DNA of 22,583 nt, from IMG/VR virus record IMGVR_UViG_2724679236_000013, positions 1-22,583 of that record. One strand, given 5' to 3'. This DNA comes from a virus (taxonomy: Duplodnaviria; Heunggongvirae; Uroviricota; Caudoviricetes). Below, one piece after another: positions 1 to 19,817 of the stretch. The notes below the pieces were generated by a model that had not been told where the DNA came from, searched no databases, and worked only from the letters and a program-made list of their open reading frames with translations. The position numbers were made by a program, and so were the translations under genes. Within the stretch, counting starts at the first letter, position 1, and each line of letters opens with the position of its first letter.

Positions 1-2181
1 TTATGCTACAACTCCACCATTAACCAAAAGTCTCTCGGCTCCATTACTGCTTCCTGCCCCACCATTTGAGAACCTGTTTGTTACACCGTAGTAGAAATTG
101 GGATTCACAAAAGCATTGGCAGAACCTGTTGTTCTTGCAAGCCTGAAGGCATTTTTTGTGCCAATAAATGTTATCCCTCCCCATGGCAGTTGAATTGTTG
201 TGTCAACATAAGTCTGACACCACACACCATATGCAAATCCCTTAATTACACCACCAATAATAATTGCATTTGAAGGTTCTCCTGCAACATAAACTGCGGA
301 GTTAGCCGTTGAGTCTGTCAGGGTTCCTTTCGCATTCAGATTATTCAGGGTACTTGTTGCCGCCGCACCTGATGCAAAAACGACACCATATCCATCCGTG
401 GCTCTTTCAACAACAATGTTATTGAGGATGTGATCACCAAAGACTGTCGCTCCAGATACTGGAGAGAGAAATACACTATTACCCGCAGCCCTGACAGTCC
501 TGTGGCCATTAACAACAACACCATTAGCTTCACCAGTAATGTATATTCCTGAACCTTTGCTATCAAAATCTACATTATTAATCATTGTTAACTTTGAATT
601 ACCCACTCTATCCTGAATACGATAAGCCCCTGAACCAGATTGACCAAATCCTGAAACAATATTGTTTGAGATTACATCTCCATCAACAATGTCTCCAATA
701 AGTATACCTCCAGAGATATTTGAAGAATCTGTTTTGATGCCAACATTATAGATAATATTGGCATCAATAATTGATGGTGGATACGAGACAGAGCCGTCTG
801 CCCCGCCTGAACGATAAATGCCAGTCCAGTTAGTATCACGAATGATATTATGTGCAATCAATATTGAACCGCCGTAAGTTTGATGGCTATTATAGCCAAA
901 CTCAATACCGTGCCTTTTATTGATTAGCGATGAATCCTTCGCAGTGAAATCAGAGTTGTAGGTGAGAATTGTGTTATTTGTAATAATAATATCCCTGTCA
1001 GCAGACAAGGCGTTCACATTTATTCCCTGGCTGGCATCTGACAGTAGCAAATTACCTATAATTTTACCTCCCTTTGATGCCCCTGGAGTACCAGTGTAAG
1101 CGACTATATCACCTCCAGTGGCAAATGTACTGGTTAGGTCCCAATCATTAAGCCAGCATAAATTATCAATAGCTTCCCACTGCCTGCAGCTCTGGAAGAA
1201 TATCCCTGCATTTTTCCATCCGATGCTTCTGCAGCGCCTAACAAATGCCTGCTTAAGTCCAACCATTCTAAATCCATTTGCAGTTTCAGCAGCCGTAGAT
1301 GGTGTCGCACTAACGTTTTTAACTTCAAGCCCTTCCAATTGAAAGATTGTTTGGTCATTTTCAGGCGCCATTACACCGTTAATTTCTGGCGCGGTATATT
1401 CAACTATCATACCGTCGGCAGTTACCCATGGATTAACGCCAGTAAACAAAAGGCCGACTGATGACCTGAATACGCCAGGACTACCAATACAACGATTTTG
1501 AGTGGCCCACCTTGAAAGACCAGTTGCACTGTCAAAGGTATCGTCATCAGGTATAGCACCACATTCTGGCGGAGTGAGAGCATCTTTCTTAACGTTAATC
1601 CATCTCCCCTGACCACTAACTGATGATGGCATGATGACTGAGAATCCATCATGGGCCTCTGTGCTAGTTGCATTCCATCTGAAACAACCACCACCAACAC
1701 CTCTTCCAGCATGAAAGCTTTTTACCGACACTCTCTCCCCGTTATCAATCAGGGACAATTGGGAGAAGGATTGCAAGTCCGCTACCGATTCAAACTCCCC
1801 AATCATCGACATGCCATATGGAGCTTCCAAGTCATGTTTTAGCGCGGCAGGATCATACTTCAACACATTAGGAAAATAGAACTGCTGAGCACCATACGCA
1901 TCATAAACAGCCATAGAATGGCCATGTACAGTAACGAATTTGGCAATCTGTCCGTTATATACCGGATATCCAGCAGCGTTAATGATGATTGGTTGCGAAA
2001 CAGGAATGTGAGAGCCGTCTTCGTTCTCCACATAAACCTGAATCTGGTTTTCAGGATTTACCGGGTCTGTGTCAATTTTACCGATATAAATTTTGCCATT
2101 GGCTACGGCTTTAAAAGAACGCGCCATAGTGAAGAGTTGCGAAGGCATCGATACAATCACATTGGCTGTAATGTCTGTCAT
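1..2181 (-). CDS. Tailspike protein (P22 gp9 family), 726 aa: conserved N-terminal head-binding domain, divergent C-terminal receptor-binding domain
   Basis: The first ~110 aa ([13 protein letters not shown]...[23 protein letters not shown]...VLKYDP) closely match the P22 tailspike head-binding domain as I remember it; the remainder is Gly/Asn/Ile-rich as expected for a beta-helix. Stop codon TAA lies at positions 1-3. Last gene of the late block, as in P22. Confidence 0.9.
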
Positions 2182-2303: not shown

Positions 2304-3206
2304 TTAAAGTTTAATTGAGTGGCACGCTCTATCACGTATCGCTGCGAATGAAGCTATCTCTTTAAGTGCCCAGCTTTGCTCAGCCATTAAATGGCGAAGT
2401 GCTTTTAGCTCGGCTCTTACTGCTGAAACGTCATACCCCGCTTTTGTCAGAATATCGATTAGTTTATACGCCGGACTGCATTCAACGAGTGCGCTGCGGT
2501 CAAGAGCAACAGTATCACCGCATTGCTGCCTGATAATGGCGTAAGGTGCATTTTCAGCAAACCATGAAATCGGGAAGTTAATATCCAGTTTCGGCGCTGG
2601 TAACTCTTCTTGTTTGCCGATGAACTCACCTTCAAGCACTACCCTGTGGATGTACTCTACGGCTTGCGGTATCTGAGATGCATCAAGCTCTTCAATACTT
2701 TCCACATTGAAACGCTGATGAATCATTGCATAAGCTTCTGGGTACATTAGATGCTTTTTGCTGACTAGCATATTTACAGCATCACGAAGCGGAGTCCTGT
2801 CATCAACAGATGTTTTCTTACGTGCATTTTCTGCCTTTCCCTTTGTCCAGTAGTCATGCAGCACAGTAAAGCATTCTTCCTGGTACTGAATCAGTTTATC
2901 GCGGATGTCAGCACGAACTTTCTCAGGGTTGATGCTGAACAGCCATCCATTTAACTTCTTCAAAGGAAGGCAGAGTAACTTACGAAGCTTCCCATCAGCG
3001 GCAACCATGTTCATATGAACACAGTTGAATTTGCTAATCTGCTTCATGAGTTTTGTTTGCTGCGTTGACCAGCTCATTCCAAGGTTTTCAACGATTGGCT
3101 TCATCGCAACATATGCAACTCCGGCAGCCATGGCGGTGATAATTTGCTGACCGTTGAATGGTACGTAAGAGGTGTTCACTGCTTCTAAAATTGCTATACT
3201 ATTCAT
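2304..3206 (-). CDS. ant: Antirepressor Ant (immI region), 300 aa
   Basis: Lies directly downstream of the Arc-like gene and upstream of the tailspike, the P22 immI arrangement. Start chosen at the internal Met ([10 protein letters not shown]...), which is preceded by GGAG; this gives 300 aa, the size I recall for P22 Ant. The 322-aa extension in the ORF track is probably not translated. Confidence 0.75.
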
Positions 3207-3438
3207 GTTGGTTTTTCTCCACGGATTTACTGACAACCGAAGCCCTGACTGTTCCCGCAGTTGGGGCTTCACTGTTTTGATTTCTTTGCCGCATCAAGCA
3301 TCACTTCTGAAAACGTGCGCTTGCCACTGAATACTCTTTCTCTTCTCAATTTTTCGTTCGTGCCAAATGATTCGCCATGAACAAAATTTGGTCTTAAAAT
3401 GGTAATCGCAATCTCTTTGACTACTGCATCCAAGCGAA

Positions 3439-3941: not shown

Positions 3942-4182
3942 AGACATAGCCCCATATAGCGTAAGAATGCCAGATAGCCTCAAGCGCGACCTGACCATAA
4001 GAGCATCGAAAAACGGACGCTCATTAAATTCAGAAATAGTTATGATCTTGCAAGCCGCTATTGATGAAGAAAAATCACCAAGATCGATAGAAGGTTTTGC
4101 TCAACAAGAATCTGAAAAATTTAGGGAGGCTCTTCTTAAGACTCTCAGCAGCATGTACGGAGAAGATAAAAAACCCACCTGA
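3916..4182 (+). CDS. Second Mnt/Arc-like RHH protein (paralog of the upstream gene), 88 aa
   Basis: RHH-like N-terminus (VRMPDSLKRDLTIRASKNGRSLNSEIVMILQAA). Its C-terminus ends ...MYGEDKKPT, against ...MYGNDENKG in the upstream protein. Start is uncertain (ATG at 3916 or 3925, neither with a strong ribosome-binding site); it overlaps the upstream stop, suggesting translational coupling. Confidence 0.5.
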   Translation: MATMKTKVRDIAPYSVRMPDSLKRDLTIRASKNGRSLNSEIVMILQAAIDEEKSPRSIEGFAQQESEKFREALLKTLSSMYGEDKKPT

Positions 4183-4192
4183 CGGTGGGTTT
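4168..4192. terminator. Bidirectional rho-independent terminator between convergent genes
   Basis: AAAAAA-CCCACC-tgac-GGTGGG-TTT: a 6-bp GC-rich stem flanked by an A-run and a T-run. It overlaps the stop of the + strand RHH gene and sits directly beside the stop of the minus-strand toxin-like gene (4191). Confidence 0.55.
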
Positions 4193-4640
4193 AGTCAAAC
4201 ATAGTGTTTCTAAAGTCTCTCGCATACCCTGCTAACACTCTCATTCTATTATGATTGTTAGCAGACATGTGAGCTACAGGATGAAAAAGAGCAATCAATG
4301 AATACCTGTTCTCATCAAAAAGATTTTGTGCATAAACGAGAGCGGTATTGGATGTTTTATGCCACTGCAACTTTTGCGGTGTGCTGATATCTGTGCCATT
4401 TTTTATTGGCTCAAATTTATTTTCACCAATTGCTAAATGAAGGTGCATAAGGCCTGCATCTTCAATATCAGGAGGTCGATGATAAGAGGTGTCTCTGCCA
4501 AAATAGCTGGGCAACGTTCCCGTAGACTTGTAGATGATAAAATCATCTACAAGTGTTTGTTTTAAATCAGGAAACTCAACAAAAACCGGGGAGAAAAAAT
4601 AGTCAAAACTATCCTGATTATATTCCACGGTTACTTGCAT
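4191..4640 (-). CDS. Putative YafO-family toxin-like protein, 149 aa
   Basis: Motifs YFGRD...HLHLA...ALVYAQNLFDE...LIALFHP...NHNRM resemble E. coli YafO (ribosome-dependent mRNA interferase) as I recall it; not verified by search. GAGG ribosome-binding site; start lies 8 nt after the upstream gene's stop. AT-rich cargo DNA. Confidence 0.5.
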   Translation of the reverse strand: MQVTVEYNQDSFDYFFSPVFVEFPDLKQTLVDDFIIYKSTGTLPSYFGRDTSYHRPPDIEDAGLMHLHLAIGENKFEPIKNGTDISTPQKLQWHKTSNTALVYAQNLFDENRYSLIALFHPVAHMSANNHNRMRVLAGYARDFRNTMFD

Positions 4641-4648
4641 GTTTTACC

Positions 4649-5215
4649 TCAGTGGAAGTTACCAGAGTGAAACACACGAGTCCCGTGCTCAGCAAGCGCA
4701 CGCAAACCAGCCATATCTACGGAACTATCAAAAACAACCGGAACACATGAGCGTTGTTTAATAAGACTATTCAGGTTGGTTACGGCAGATCTGGCATCAG
4801 CAACAACGATATAGATATCTCTTGCGATCTCTTTAAAATCAGCAGAAGCTTCTTTGAATACCGATTTCATTGCCCCTTCAAGTCCTCTCAATTGATGCTC
4901 TATCAATCGAGACTTTTCTGGTTCAATGATAGACAACACATTGTCTACATTCTCATCGGTAGCGTTTGCAAGAACACGATAAGCGTATTTCAGCATTCGA
5001 GACAATTCTTTAATCGAAGACACCGCCTCATGAAGCTCATCATTAGCCCGTTCACTGCTGAATGAGGATTGATGGTAAGCGTGCTGAACGTTATCAGTAA
5101 CAACCACCTCACAACTGAACGCAGAAGCTTGCTGTAATAGCAAACCTATTGCGACTCCAGCTTTGGCAGCGTTCAAGCTAAACATTTCATCAATCCTATT
5201 AGTCTCATTGCTCAT
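4649..5215 (-). CDS. Hypothetical protein, 188 aa, translationally coupled upstream partner of the YafO-like ORF (candidate non-canonical antitoxin or regulator)
   Basis: Strong ribosome-binding site AAGGAGG 5 nt upstream of the ATG at 5215 (the ORF track's longer form starts at a TTG). No resemblance to YafN/DinJ/RelB or RHH antitoxins that I can recognise; no transmembrane segment evident. Confidence 0.6.
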   Translation of the reverse strand: MSNETNRIDEMFSLNAAKAGVAIGLLLQQASAFSCEVVVTDNVQHAYHQSSFSSERANDELHEAVSSIKELSRMLKYAYRVLANATDENVDNVLSIIEPEKSRLIEHQLRGLEGAMKSVFKEASADFKEIARDIYIVVADARSAVTNLNSLIKQRSCVPVVFDSSVDMAGLRALAEHGTRVFHSGNFH

Positions 5216-5390
5216 ACAAACCTCCTTCTTATCGGAGATTATCAATAGCTATGCATCCATTGAATACACGCTATGCGCAATAAGTTTACGTCACGTGATA
5301 TCATTATGCAACCACCGTTCTATCACCGACTAACTTTACTCCCACTCCTATACATCATCTGGTATCCTGCGCAAAACTAAGGAGGTTGGT
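5216..5390. promoter_or_regulatory. Divergent intergenic control region of the cargo island
   Basis: A 175-bp AT-rich spacer between divergent starts (5215 minus, 5391 plus). It contains overlapping 8-bp palindromes TCACGTGA (5291-5298) and TGATATCA (5296-5303), candidate operator sites. Confidence 0.4.
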
Positions 5391-5813
5391 GTGTTTGGTA
5401 TATTAAAGAAAAGCAAGATAAAAAAATTAAGGGCAGAACTCGCCGAAACACAAAAACTGGCTTCACATTTTTACAAAATGAAATACGACGCTGAAGAGCG
5501 TGCATTCGTTGAGTTATGCGATTTATCTATTCGTATGGGAGTAGAGCCAGATGTAGCGGCAAAAACTCAACAAGGCATTGATATACTTGCAGATGTTGTT
5601 TTAAACAGGCAATATGCGTTTTATCTAAACGAGAAGGCCATTCAGATTTACTCGCAAATCTTCCTCCTAGAAAAAAGAAGAGGAACTCACGATCGAGAAG
5701 AGTGGTTAAATGAAGTTGTTAAAAAATCTGGCTGGGAAGTTGTTTCATCAGAACTACCTCTTATTTGTGCTGATTTAATCGAAGAGGCAAAAGAGCGCCT
5801 ATCCGATGGCTAG
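5391..5813 (+). CDS. Hypothetical protein, 140 aa (cargo gene of unknown function)
   Basis: GTG start at 5391 preceded by AAGGAGG at 5-nt spacing. Divergent from the toxin-like operon and convergent on gp16; no recognisable domain. Confidence 0.55.
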   Translation: MFGILKKSKIKKLRAELAETQKLASHFYKMKYDAEERAFVELCDLSIRMGVEPDVAAKTQQGIDILADVVLNRQYAFYLNEKAIQIYSQIFLLEKRRGTHDREEWLNEVVKKSGWEVVSSELPLICADLIEEAKERLSDG

Positions 5814-10045: not shown

Positions 10046-10504
10046 CTATCTCCCGTGCTTCAAGAAGTCGATTAGTTCTTCGCGTGTGGCGCTGTAAAAC
10101 GTCACGTCATCCACGCCTTTGAAGTATTTCTTGATGGTTCCTACACGCTTAAGGCCAATCATTGCGCAGTACATCTGCCCGTGGCGGAATTTGCGTGCAG
10201 CGAACGATGTGACGCACTGAACGGTGGTGTTAGTCAGAATGTATCGCCAGAACGCCAGCCCGATTTCCTTGCTGAAGCCGCGAATCTCTGGCAGGTACAT
10301 GGCGTGGCAATCAAAGGTCAGCGGCTGAATCTCCTGATAGTAAACAATGCCGCCGAACTGCCCGTGCACGTTCACCTCAAAGTAACGGCAATCAGGTTTG
10401 TAGTCGTATCCATCACCGTTGTTGCTACCAGCGATAATGTCAGGGTGATTTCCGACTGCTTCGATCAGGTCGATGTTTCGCGTTGGTTTGAACTGAATCA
10501 TCAC
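10046..10504 (-). CDS. P22 gp14-like head/DNA-stabilisation protein, 152 aa
   Basis: Positional homolog between gp26 and gp7; its start overlaps the gp26 stop (ATGA). Confidence 0.55.
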
Positions 10505-11349
10505 TGCTCCGCGATTATCTTGATGGTTGTGGCAGTAAACGCCGCCCCATTTGACTGAATGGTTAACGTACTGCCATTTGTGGCAAGAAAGCCGTCTTTA
10601 TCCACGCTGAAGAACGTAGCTAACAGGATGTTGTCGGTTGTCGTCGCCGCATTACGACTGCTGACCAGTGTGTCAGGAACAGAGCCGGAAAAGGTTAGCT
10701 GCATTGACCTGTTTGCGGTTCCGCTGGGCCACGTCCCGACGATCGACAGTTTGAAGAACAAGGTTTTGTTCTCGTTGAACACAACCATCTTGTTGTTAGC
10801 AGTGTCGAAGAATGGTGCCAACGCGCCAGATGACGGCGTGAGCGTTTTCAGCAGGCTAACAAGGTTGGTCGGCGCTGTCGGAATGGTTACTGATACGCCA
10901 GAGTAAACAACCTCTGACTTTTTGCGAGTAGTGGCATACTCCAGAGCATCAATGCGCGTTTCATGGTCTGAAACCTGCGACTCCAGCGACTGAACTCTGG
11001 TATCAAGCGACGCAATATCGCTTTCATTCTGAGCGATTCGCGTTTCATGTTCCTGAAGAGTTGATTCTGCCTGGCTGATTCGCTCCTCATGATTAACAAG
11101 CGTTGCTTCCGCAGCAGAAATTCGCTGCTCATGGTCAGCGAGAATCACATCCTGCTCATCGTTCCTGACTTGTGCGTCATAAGCGCCCTGTCCGGCCTCG
11201 TTGGCCTTGTTAGCCACGTTACCAACATCAGTGCCCTGTGCGATAACGTAAAGCAGATACGACTGCGAGAAGATATTGCGTGGAAGAACTGATGTGTCGA
11301 GTCGTGTAGCCTGAATGATTACCGGCACATTGAGATTCGAATCCGCCAT
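10501..11349 (-). CDS. Tail needle (P22 gp26 family) with Sf6-type C-terminal knob domain, 282 aa
   Basis: N-terminus [43 protein letters not shown]...NDEQDV is near-identical to the P22 gp26 N-terminal tip as I remember it. Central heptad-like repeats ([49 protein letters not shown]) indicate a trimeric coiled coil. The C-terminal ~130 aa are beta-rich, like the Sf6 needle knob, not the P22 helical tip. Confidence 0.85.
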
Positions 11350-11843
11350 TACTCAATCCTCTGCCTTGCAAACTCTCCAAAATTTTCTGCTCTTGCCATC
11401 ATTGATGCTGAGATAGCTTCGTCCAGGTCATCGAAGCATCCAACGTGAACCTGTTTTTTATTTTTCTTGAAAGAAACAGTCCACTTGCAGAGATTTTTGT
11501 GCCAACAGACACCCGGATATCCTGACTTATTATTTCTTTGAATATTCCTGTTCATCCCATTCTGGGATCTATTTGCCAATCTTAAATTTGAAAATCTGTT
11601 ATCCGTTCTGTCTCCGTTAATATGATCTATTAAGCAATTTGCAGGTTTTCCTGTCATATAAAACCAAGCAAGCCTATGCGCTAAGTATCTCTTACCACAG
11701 ACCATTATCCTTAAATAACCAGTGCACATGGTTCCCGCTTCATCACCAACGGTGACGCTCGCTGTATTTGATATTTTTCGGGTAAAAACCCCGGTTTCTG
11801 GGTCATATGATAAATGACGCTTCAACTCTTCATGTGAAATCAT
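11349..11843 (-). CDS. HNH homing endonuclease with AP2-like DNA-binding domain, 164 aa
   Basis: HNH-type motif [31 protein letters not shown] followed by an AP2-like segment ([40 protein letters not shown]). Inserted between gp10 and gp26, which are adjacent in P22. Its stop overlaps the gp26 start (TAATG) and its start lies 2 nt after the gp10 stop. Confidence 0.75.
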
Positions 11844-11845
11844 TA

Positions 11846-13264
11846 TTACTCCAGCCTAATAGAGCAGCCAGACAGAGTGACAGGTGACTTCGTGATAACG
11901 CGCAATTTGAAGCCAACATTTTTCCTGATGCGCCCTACTCGCTTCCACAAAACACGTTTGTCGTAAACGAACGGTTCATTCTGCTCAATCATCTGCTCAC
12001 GCCCGTAATTGATGCCGTCAGTGGTTGCAGAGAGGAACAGGCGGTCAGCGTACTGAGCGACACCCGTCGATGATTCAACTTCCAGATCGAAGCATCTGCC
12101 GTTATCCGCTTTGAACAACGGAGTAAACAGAAGGTGTTCCTGTTGCTTGTCGTACTGGCTGCTGATGTCGAACTGCAATTTCCCGGTCACCGATTCCAGC
12201 TTATCGCCGCACGTTATCTGATTGCCTTCGTAAATGAAGTCGATAGCGCGGTACACATCGTCATACAGGCCTGTTTTCAACACACACCATTGCGGACCAT
12301 TGGCGCTTGAAGATGCGTCGTACACCAGAACATGGCGCGGAAGGTGGATAATCAGCAGTTCATGCGCATCAAATCGCAGCGATTCCATCACACCATCAGC
12401 CAGTTCATCAGCAGTGTAGGAGCGTAGTATTTTCTCAATGCTCGCGCTGGCGATTGGTGATACCTGACCGGAGCCGATGATATACACAGACGGCGCACCT
12501 GTTGCCGGATTGCTGATGAACGCATACGAGTCAGCAAACGGCGTTTTGCAGTAAGTCCCGGCAATGCCTTTTTGCACCATCAGTGATGGCTGTGCGACAT
12601 ACAAAGCAGCACCAACGGTGGTTGCGCCAGTAAGGGAGAAATATTCAATAGTCGATGAACCAAAGCAGACGATGAAGTCTCGCCATGTCCCGATACCGAT
12701 GATGCCGTCCGGCTGAGACTCGGCACGATATTGTGCGCTGTAGCGGTCAGGGTGCGATTCGTCTTCAAGGTCAGTGATAAACCATGAATCAGTGCCGTCT
12801 TTTGACCACGCATAACGCCCACGTAAGCGCGTAATGTCGCGGACTGAACCTAACTCATACTGCGTGAATCCGCTGTCTGTAGGCCAGTTTGAGACGGTTT
12901 TAACCGTGCCATCATAGCGATACTCGACCAGTTGACCATTAACGCCTACTGCCTGTGATGTCCTACCGTGTGCCATTGATACGCGACCACTTCCGGCAAC
13001 ATCACCGACCTCGCTTTCGCCCTTATACAGCTTGCCGCCACACACGCGATATACAGCATTCTGCGCCATGTTGTACTCGACGCCGCGCGATACGCCGTTC
13101 ACATCAGAACGTTTGGCAATGCCCGGGAATGAGCGAAGATATCCGCTGCTGTTAAGGATTTCTTTGGGTGTAGCCAACATATTCACTGGCAGATAGTCGA
13201 TATAGTCGGCGTTTCGAAAGTCTTTGCCGACACCTTTCATAAGCGGAAGTTGCTGAATCGGCAT
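11846..13264 (-). CDS. Tail accessory/hub protein, P22 gp10 family, 472 aa
   Basis: Synteny after gp4 and the same length as I recall for P22 gp10. Confidence 0.75.
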   Translation of the reverse strand: MPIQQLPLMKGVGKDFRNADYIDYLPVNMLATPKEILNSSGYLRSFPGIAKRSDVNGVSRGVEYNMAQNAVYRVCGGKLYKGESEVGDVAGSGRVSMAHGRTSQAVGVNGQLVEYRYDGTVKTVSNWPTDSGFTQYELGSVRDITRLRGRYAWSKDGTDSWFITDLEDESHPDRYSAQYRAESQPDGIIGIGTWRDFIVCFGSSTIEYFSLTGATTVGAALYVAQPSLMVQKGIAGTYCKTPFADSYAFISNPATGAPSVYIIGSGQVSPIASASIEKILRSYTADELADGVMESLRFDAHELLIIHLPRHVLVYDASSSANGPQWCVLKTGLYDDVYRAIDFIYEGNQITCGDKLESVTGKLQFDISSQYDKQQEHLLFTPLFKADNGRCFDLEVESSTGVAQYADRLFLSATTDGINYGREQMIEQNEPFVYDKRVLWKRVGRIRKNVGFKLRVITKSPVTLSGCSIRLE

Positions 13265-18401: not shown

Positions 18402-19817
18402 TCAACCTACACCACAAGGAATTGAGTAACTGGAATAGTCGGGTTGCGCAGCCGACTCCGGGCAATGCATACACATCATCAGCGCATCAGCCAGGTTAGG
18501 AGATGGAATACCGAGCTTCTGCTTCATTTCGACCTTAGTCATTAGCTCCAGCTTCCCGTTGTTATTGAATTTGCGCTGAATCTGCGTCAGTTCTGCAAAC
18601 AGCTTCTCCAGCATCTTCTCGCCTATCGCTTCTTTGTCGAAACTCAGCATGTCGTCGGGGTCTGCATACTCACCGTAAACAACCGCCCGATATGTCAGAT
18701 ACAGCCTGTCAGCCAGCGCGTAATAGAATTGCGCTCGCTTATTGCGGAACACATCACCAATAGTGCGAACGTTGTCGCCCTGTACGACTTCATCAGCCCA
18801 TGCTCCGGCCTGATACGGCGCATCTTCATCGAATGGCGATTCACTGCCCTTGAACATCGTGGCGGTGATTTTCTTGCCGGAGAACGCTTCCGTTGTCTGT
18901 CTGCGTAGGCCCGCACCAACACCATCACCATCCCACAGGTAATGGTCAGCACCGTCTTCAATCGCCAGCGAAGTTGCCCAGTCAGCACCTTCATTGATGT
19001 CCATCAGCAGACCTTCGGCAATGCGCTTAACAACCGAACCGTGACGCGATGCATAACCTTTAGCATCCGGCCCTGTATCTGACGGGTCATGCGCAGAGAC
19101 AACAGCGCCTTTCGCTTTCCATCCGAGTTTCTTGTGCGCATCGGTTGCGGCTTCAAGCCATTCACGTTTGATGATTGCCATATCACTTGCGCTTACTGGC
19201 TCACCAAGCCAGATGTGACGATACAGTGTCGGATTTCTGCGTTTGCACTCTTCCATCTCCAGACGGAGAACTTCAGGAAAGTGCGGGTTGTCGGTGTAGT
19301 TCACCGTCAGCAGACAAATATCATCGGGAGGATTTACGACGAATCGCTGATAGGTATCGTCGAGTATGTTCTTCGGGTTAAAGCTCACCCATATTTCGGA
19401 AAACGGCTTGCGGATGGTTGGTATCAGGATATCCCATGATTCCTTCGTTACCGCTTCCGCTTCTTCCACCCAGCAGATATCAATGCCTTCGAGCGATTTA
19501 ATCTTCGTCGGGTTGTTTTTGATGCCGTAGAACATGAATTCAGCATTCGTTCCGAGATGACGAATCATGGAACGCTGAATTTCAAACTCAGCCGAATACC
19601 CTTCACGCTCGATGGTATCTTCAAGCAGCCGGATTACCGAATCGCTGATACTGTTTTGCAGTTCACGAGCGCAGAGAATACGCACTGGCTGACGACGCGC
19701 CGCTTCAACAAGCAGCCTAGCAATTGCCCATGACTTACCGCTACCTCGACCGCCTTTGGCGACTTTGTAGCGATGCGCCTCAATGAACGGTTCAAAGATA
19801 GGATTAATCGAGGTCAT
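18402..19817 (-). CDS. Terminase large subunit, 471 aa
   Basis: Walker A motif KGGRGSGKS near the N-terminus; acidic nuclease-like C-terminal half; start overlaps the small terminase stop (ATGA); followed by the portal gene. Confidence 0.9.
   Translation of the reverse strand: MTSINPIFEPFIEAHRYKVAKGGRGSGKSWAIARLLVEAARRQPVRILCARELQNSISDSVIRLLEDTIEREGYSAEFEIQRSMIRHLGTNAEFMFYGIKNNPTKIKSLEGIDICWVEEAEAVTKESWDILIPTIRKPFSEIWVSFNPKNILDDTYQRFVVNPPDDICLLTVNYTDNPHFPEVLRLEMEECKRRNPTLYRHIWLGEPVSASDMAIIKREWLEAATDAHKKLGWKAKGAVVSAHDPSDTGPDAKGYASRHGSVVKRIAEGLLMDINEGADWATSLAIEDGADHYLWDGDGVGAGLRRQTTEAFSGKKITATMFKGSESPFDEDAPYQAGAWADEVVQGDNVRTIGDVFRNKRAQFYYALADRLYLTYRAVVYGEYADPDDMLSFDKEAIGEKMLEKLFAELTQIQRKFNNNGKLELMTKVEMKQKLGIPSPNLADALMMCMHCPESAAQPDYSSYSIPCGVG

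Follow-up and report, generated by a model that had tools for sequence, protein, structure and literature searches.

A putative free-standing HNH-AP2 homing endonuclease gene, probably a recent invader of the gp10 3' end in Sf6/P22-like phages

In most Sf6/P22-like phages, the gene for the head closure protein gp10 is joined directly to the tail needle gene; what, then, is the ORF that lies between them in the phage DNA described here, and how did it come to be there? The window, i.e. the whole stretch of 22,583 nt that was analysed, carries a P22/Sf6-like virion-assembly operon on its minus strand, for which gene calls give the order large terminase, portal, scaffold, coat, gp4, gp10, nuclease ORF, tail needle, gp14-like, ejection proteins, accessory region, and tailspike (Table 1). 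The explanation that we favor, with a rough probability of 0.8 based on sequence analysis, is that the ORF is a free-standing HNH_3 (I-HmuI-like, "HNN") plus AP2 homing endonuclease gene, a recent invader of Sf6/P22-like phages at the gp10 3' end, the best reading being that the enzyme is active or was so until recently. The geometry reported for the 164-aa ORF in the initial annotation, with a 2-nt gap upstream and a 1-nt stop/start overlap downstream, is exact; gp10 ends at 11846, 2 nt before the nuclease ORF, and the nuclease stop codon and the needle start codon have one base in common at 11349 (TAATG). The nuclease has an ORF of its own, with an ATG and a TAA, which is out of frame relative to gp10 and is surrounded by neither an intron nor an intein, and an identical protein is already annotated in E. 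coli genomes, where its RefSeq name is HNH endonuclease. The composition of the ORF is foreign, with a GC content of 39.6% versus 51% in the flanks and a GC3 of 38% versus 56%.

Table 1. Features of the gp10-needle junction and its surroundings (positions in the window)
Feature	Position	Strand	Basis or remark
Large terminase gene	18402..19817		
gp10 gene (head closure / packaged-DNA stabilisation protein), invaded gene	11846..13264	minus	PF11134, E=9e-301; PHROG 578
Cassette, putatively mobile, 503 nt, GC 39.6%	11361..11863	minus	Alignment to empty sites of NCTC9104 (L124), Sf6, and N7
Recoded gp10 tail, TCT ATT AGG CTG GAG TAA (SIRLE-stop)	11846..11863	minus	Carried by the cassette
GGAG, putative Shine-Dalgarno sequence, 5 nt before the nuclease ATG	11849..11852	minus	Read from sequence; made by the recoded gp10 tail
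Homing endonuclease ORF (putative), 164 aa	11349..11843	minus	ORF list; RefSeq WP_021529423.1, HNH endonuclease
N-terminal beta-rich region, aa 1-52, comparable to the N-terminal DNA-contact domain of I-HmuI	11688..11843	minus	
HNH_3 (HNN-type) catalytic domain, aa 53-97; D73, H74, N86, N95, N98	11553..11687	minus	Pfam, homologue columns, I-HmuI alignment
AP2-type DNA-binding domain (putative), aa 107-153, three strands and a helix	11385..11525	minus	
Resident gp10 tail, AGG ATT GAG TAA, forming the last nuclease codons (RIE-stop)	11349..11360	minus	Identical to the gp10 3' end of empty alleles
Tail needle gene (gp26 homologue, Sf6-type knob), downstream flank	10501..11349	minus	PF16532, E=7e-116; PHROG 1030

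Beyond the junction, between the genes for the ejection proteins and the tailspike, the accessory region holds a 149-aa ORF that matches the YafO type II toxin family (4191..4640, minus strand; PF13957, E=3e-22; NCBIfam NF007377 reaches 79 bits against a cutoff of 153). The adjacent 198-aa ORF (4649..5245, minus strand), considered as an antitoxin partner, gave no family match. A P22_AR_N antirepressor-like ORF (2304..3272, minus strand; E=3e-45) adjoins the tailspike gene (1..2181, head-binding domain), which is cut off at the window start.

The protein starts with a region like the N terminus of I-HmuI, continues with an HNN catalytic domain, and ends in an AP2 domain, and both the HNH and the AP2 part are detected by profile and fold searches. 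The HNH motif named in the initial annotation corresponds to a full-length Pfam HNH_3 match well above cutoff (E=4e-16, 58.7 bits versus 24.8, profile positions 1-46 of 46) and to a match with PHROG 99, "HNH endonuclease" (E=4e-70), and its catalytic residues are intact. More than 4,900 homologues were found, and among 61 sampled from them all match HNH_3, with D73, H74, N86, and N98 invariant and N95 at least 90% conserved; residue by residue, the active site lines up with D74/H75/N87/N96 of I-HmuI. An AlphaFold model built on the homologue alignment is confident (pLDDT 92.4, pTM 0.80) and predicts a beta-beta-alpha-metal fold similar to that of I-HmuI, together with the three-stranded antiparallel sheet packed on a C-terminal helix that characterizes the AP2 fold. 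The AP2-like segment is the part of the domain assignment that stands with a qualification, because the fold model and the family speak for it (51 of the 61 sampled homologues match AP2 at E<1e-3, the best at 7e-11), but its own Pfam score lies under the gathering cutoff (E=8e-5, 23.3 bits versus 33.3, profile positions 1-50 of 54); the C-terminal AP2 call is one made on the modeled fold and the family context. Searching for defence systems with PADLOC returned just a weak generic "homing endonuclease" profile match (E=6e-6), and NCBIfam returned none.

The gene is absent from most relatives. Among 37 phage records matching the junction region, the ORF occurs in one, vB_EcoP-683R2, where it is 99.8% identical, and in Sf6, N7, Kapi1, HK620, and the remaining records gp10 is joined directly to the needle gene. 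Across 5,426 complete E. coli genomes, 914 carry this gp10 versus 16 with the nuclease ORF, and in IMG/VR the ORF is found at 2 of the 80 best gp10 loci, so that ∼2% of related prophages and phages have the gene and ∼98% do not; the possibility that it belongs at this position in all P22-like phages is thereby dismissed. Among the loci that we compared, the same junction is filled in 15 and empty in 81, as well as in Sf6, N7, and NCTC9104. The last of these, a prophage of E. coli NCTC9104 (NZ_LR134152.1 1825710-1834291), offers a near-isogenic empty site, with one gp10 mismatch to the window in ∼900 nt beside the junction and a needle gene 95-100% identical. The gp4 and ejection-protein modules of the NCTC9104 prophage are unrelated to those of the window, and it provides a natural "empty site" control. 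A scan of GTDB species representatives gave just two distant homologues (Methylobacterium and Gilliamella, ∼40% identity) and is silent on host range. In the searchable literature, where coverage is incomplete and an earlier description is possible, we found no account of a nuclease at the gp10/gp26 junction of P22-like phages.

This distribution bears directly on the idea that an HNH protein coded inside a virion-assembly operon might be a terminase-associated factor like HK97 gp74, without which DNA packaging or virion assembly would fail. We regard such a role as extremely improbable and reject it on the grounds that ∼98% of phages with the same gp10 manage without the gene, including the viable Sf6, N7, and HK620, that the terminase gene is ∼6.5 kb away, and that the sole HNH match of the protein is to HNH_3, of the I-HmuI group, not to PF01844. 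Packaging HNH proteins belong to His-Me finger group 1 (PMC5714182).

Where exactly the gene entered can be read from an alignment of the junction with the insert-free relatives Sf6, N7, and NCTC9104. The cassette stands in place of 6 nt of the empty allele (CAGATA), which lengthens the allele by 497 nt. Along the gene strand, the empty allele reads ...TCTGGCTGC / CAGATA / AGGATTGAGTAATGGC..., and the filled allele reads ...TCTGGCTGC / TCTATTAGGCTGGAGTAATA-ATG...nuclease...GCAAGGCAG / AGGATTGAGTAATGGC.... The initial annotation saw the ORF as wedged precisely between gp10 and the needle gene; this is true of the ORF itself but not of the DNA that moved, because the cassette begins on its left 18 nt within gp10, and the nuclease ORF closes with 12 nt of resident gp10 tail. 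On the left, the cassette replaces the native gp10 tail, CAG ATA AGG ATT GAG TAA (QIRIE-stop), by a recoded one in which 6 of the 18 nt are changed (native CAGATAAGGATTGAG versus recoded TCTATTAGGCTGGAG), and the GGAG within this recoded tail probably serves the nuclease as a ribosome-binding site. On the right, four observations identify the end of the ORF as resident sequence: it is identical to empty alleles, the T/C polymorphism of AGGAT(T/C)GAG is present in empty and filled alleles alike, the nuclease copy of a second lineage terminates in a lineage-specific GAATAA, and the family consensus stops at GEFAR plus at most 3 residues. The resident tail retains the TAATG coupling to the needle gene. 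The cassette is located within the end of gp10, restores gp10 with the copy of the tail that it brings, and spares the upstream context of the needle gene.

Two other properties of the junction were considered and set aside. A direct repeat, AGG-NTN-GAGTAAT, at both cassette ends could evoke transposition with target-site duplication, which we reject because gp10 function demands R-(I/L)-E-stop from both copies and because HNH homing leaves no duplications behind. In many empty alleles, a 5-bp inverted repeat, CTGGC-T-GCCAG, spans the left insertion edge (window 11864..11875), and its right arm is destroyed by the cassette; Sf6-type tails (GGCGCTCAG) are without it, and it is probably coincidental. 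Across 46 distinct empty junction sequences, a conserved island is apparent (..T.AGG.T.GA.T.ATGGC.GA..), and constrained sequence of this kind is what homing endonucleases typically target. The window contains no intact empty-type site, the site of the filled allele being split and recoded.

The history of the cassette is reflected in its variation across backgrounds. The copies at the 15 loci differ by 0-2 nt in 495, with one (L023) also frameshifted, and most of the nucleotide changes between the window and the 14 intact-cassette loci are synonymous. For gp10, we compared the 15 filled loci (13 distinct gp10 sequences) with the 81 empty ones (73 distinct). Over nt 1-1401, diversity in filled alleles is 0.05-0.09, equal to that in empty alleles and to the divergence between the classes, whereas over the last 18 nt diversity in filled alleles (pi) is 0.000 and between-class divergence (dxy) is 0.33; diversity across filled alleles is zero within the cassette block and 5-9% just outside. 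Of the 13 distinct filled gp10 sequences, 11 have an empty allele as their closest gp10 relative, and the needle side is likewise undifferentiated, the cassette adjoining needles of three types (233, 282, and 317 aa). Polymorphisms in the flanks, 3-7 nt from both cassette edges, assort freely, and no co-conversion tract is detectable in the flanks of filled alleles. In IMG/VR, the 21-mer of the recoded tail is confined to 10 cassette-bearing contigs. No footprint of loss, i.e. a recoded gp10 tail fused to the needle start, was found in 5,426 E. coli genomes, in which the best single-piece full-length match (92.3%) is the native tail. Because a near-invariant cassette recurs in many diverged backgrounds, always with the same edges, and vertical descent predicts otherwise, we infer a recent, site-specific spread.

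Four copies are decaying: in three E. coli genomes, an IS2 element interrupts the nuclease gene after nt 387, counted from the stop-codon end (L013, which is E. coli FDAARGOS_1280, 4001-5627, and also H53 and H54), and in the IMG/VR locus L023 a 1-nt deletion at nt 56 (L023 nt 3056) causes the frameshift. With this and the low frequency (∼2%), homing activity could already have ended for part or all of the copies. A nuclease-free locus, L149 (IMGVR_UViG_2602041583_000005), has near nt 2625 a gp10 tail, TGCTCTATTCGGGTGGAATAA-TGGC (CSIRVE-stop), that resembles the recoded tail of the cassette and not the usual native ones; natural immunity, membership of the ancestral donor lineage, or past loss of the cassette could each account for it.

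The same junction is filled in a second lineage. A 78%-identical nuclease (P0003) occupies it in a diverged P22-like contig, with 72% aa identity in gp10 and 43% in the needle protein, and the 2-nt gap, the 1-nt overlap, and the edges are as in the window (TGC / TCTATCCGAGTGGAGTAAAT-ATG ... AAG / AGGATTGAATAATGGC), the matching empty allele of that lineage being CTGC / TCGGTA / AGGATTGAATAATGGC (L137). Between the two nuclease lineages, dN/dS is 0.08 (dN 0.106, dS 1.30), which points to purifying selection on the protein. More distant relatives, at ∼50% identity, occupy other sites, such as the space between scaffold and capsid genes in a T7-like contig; homologues at E<1e-20 occur in 1,059 phage records, and the closest ones in cultured phages besides 683R2 are <50% identical. 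The label "endolysin" on the nuclease gene of vB_EcoP-683R2 (ON470594.1 32056-32550; L001 2725-3219) is a misannotation, and 46%-identical homologues are mislabeled as "putative class I holin" in S4lw (OQ660438) and as "endolysin" in STP03 (KY176369).

Could the gene be passive cargo, an inactive or no-longer-homing "moron" that ordinary recombination, homologous or over short homologies, shuffles between P22-like phages? Several observations would suit this account: the strong mosaicism of P22-like genomes, in which sharp breakpoints fall at the gp4/gp10 boundary and ∼200 nt inside the needle gene, the absence of a co-conversion gradient, and the low frequency of the gene, some copies of which are disrupted. 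We nevertheless consider it unlikely, given that the catalytic residues are all intact and dN/dS is 0.08, that the same two edges, give or take a few nucleotides, return in 13 gp10 backgrounds and again in the second lineage, as they would not after random crossovers, and that near-zero diversity in the cassette against 5-9% in the flanks argues for recent and rapid spread. Given the high mosaicism of P22-like phages, ordinary recombination is a background process by which genes move as well. When the window is compared pairwise with related prophages, identity falls from 95-100% to 35-65% at the two breakpoints, which lie at ∼13265 and ∼11149 in the window, so that gp10 and the needle N terminus act as one exchange module.

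A further question is what the nuclease does for the phage that carries it. It might be a weapon of competition or exclusion that cuts the gp10 junction of co-resident or superinfecting P22-like phages, with selection acting on the phage and copying of the gene as a by-product. Its presumed target is an essential late gene of close competitors, and the PADLOC match, weak as it is, would agree with such a function, as would the idea of marker exclusion, with which I-HmuI-type biology, from what Goodrich-Blair and Shub reportedly described in 1996, is compatible. Expression and frequency, on the other hand, make this reading very unlikely as the main explanation. No promoter of its own was found upstream of the gene on the gene strand, and promoter-like matches were overall fewer than in shuffled sequence; with no promoter-like site just upstream, the gene is probably expressed with the late operon and so would be silent in lysogens, and a frequency of ∼2% is low for a beneficial weapon. 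The weapon reading and homing overlap and are not mutually exclusive.

We therefore return to homing as the preferred explanation. That the ORF is a free-standing homing endonuclease in a conserved structural operon, as first proposed from the letters of the sequence, is supported by its domains, by its absence from most relatives, and by near-identical copies in divergent flanks. Behind it stand the domains and intact active site of the protein, a presence/absence polymorphism confined to one exact site, a cassette nearly identical across many divergent backgrounds, sharp cassette edges, and purifying selection. In the mechanism that we propose, the nuclease gene would be transcribed with the late operon and translated from the GGAG made by its own recoded gp10 tail. 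The N-terminal region and the AP2 domain of the enzyme, presumably a monomer, would read the conserved sequence of the empty junction (about GGCTGC-CAGATA-AGGATTGAGTAATGGC), and the enzyme would nick or cut at or beside it, probably on a single strand, as does I-HmuI, which is a monomeric nicking enzyme. Because the recoded tail is always linked to the gene, most likely either as the stretch between cut site and gene or as the immunising change itself, the cut is predicted to fall within or next to CAGATAAGGATTGAGTAA. When filled and empty genomes meet in one cell, the break in the empty allele would be repaired from the filled one, and the cassette would be copied in. The filled allele would itself be immune, with its site split and the upstream copy carrying 6 substitutions in 18 nt. 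The recoded tail would keep gp10 full-length and the retained resident tail would keep the ribosome-binding site and start coupling of the needle gene, so that the essential operon would be left undamaged.

Classic homing often drags flanking markers along, and the free assortment of markers next to the cassette counts against homing here. A more specific proposal, which we offer tentatively and hold to be rather unlikely, is that this is a compact cassette that homes inside an essential coding sequence without the help of an intron or intein, carrying the recoded and presumably cleavage-immune last six gp10 codons together with its own ribosome-binding site and borrowing the resident tail as its C terminus and stop. 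On this view, edges as sharp as ∼3-7 nt across 13 backgrounds, with no co-conversion beside them, would be the mark of a repair route that starts from a nick and is unusually precise, and not of erosion by later recombination.

Taken together, the locus offers a clean natural example of the spread of a homing endonuclease in genetically tractable temperate phages. Sf6, P22, and HK620 have well-developed genetics, empty-site phages exist, and vB_EcoP-683R2 is a cultured carrier; the predicted target of ∼28 bp and the presumed built-in immune recoding are directly testable. Once characterised, the enzyme would add one specificity to the little-studied HNH-AP2 class. The nuclease could also explain one mosaic boundary of P22-like phages, that of the conserved gp10 beside the hypervariable needle gene, and the database annotation of ON470594 can be corrected from endolysin to HNH nuclease. 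No concept is changed by this locus, an ordinary example of its kind; it is notable for unusually clean population evidence of recent spread and for a neat junction.

Several known systems resemble this one. T4-type free-standing homing endonucleases (Seg, Mob) spread by "intronless homing", typically with co-conversion of flanking markers over tens to hundreds of nucleotides. The present gene is like them in being free-standing between or within conserved genes, in its presence/absence polymorphism, and in the spread expected in mixed infections. It differs from them in that co-conversion of the T4 type is not seen here and in that Seg and Mob belong to other nuclease families, GIY-YIG or, for Mob, group 1 HNH (PMC5714182). 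In its N-terminal region and catalytic domain, the protein resembles I-HmuI (PDB 1u3e), the intron-encoded HNH homing endonuclease of Bacillus phage SPO1 and a member of His-Me finger group 2 (PMC5714182), although sequence similarity to I-HmuI is marginal (E=0.19); a group I intron encodes I-HmuI, whose terminal DNA-binding modules are helical and HTH, whereas the present protein is free-standing and ends in AP2. Closer in both respects are the free-standing HNN-AP2 endonucleases of phages Xp10, OP1, Xop411, T5, T1, RB16, RB43, and Felix O1 (PMC2248197; Magnani et al. 2004 as cited there), which have the same two domains, the same boxes (HRLAW, DH, DNR, NLR, QN/EN), a similar size, and free-standing, scattered genes (PMC2248197). 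Those genes, however, occupy varied positions with no conserved flanks (PMC2248197), whereas in the lineage described here one strict site is used in two diverged sub-lineages. The IPA-HNH genes (HNH plus AP2) of vibriophage ICP1 and others adjoin essential genes and mark boundaries of genetic exchange (PMC10448857). Here too an N-terminal HNH and a C-terminal AP2 domain are found beside essential structural genes, between the conserved gp10 and a needle gene with a hypervariable C terminus. Unlike the ICP1 IPA-HNH proteins, which are too divergent for the HNH_3 profile (PMC10448857), the present protein matches it strongly, and the large "HEG island" of co-transferred flanks of the ICP1 case is absent. 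The class itself, its link to AP2, its mobility, and its preference for essential structural operons are already established (PMC2248197, PMC5714182, PMC10448857), and it is within this class that the gp10-junction nuclease finds its place.
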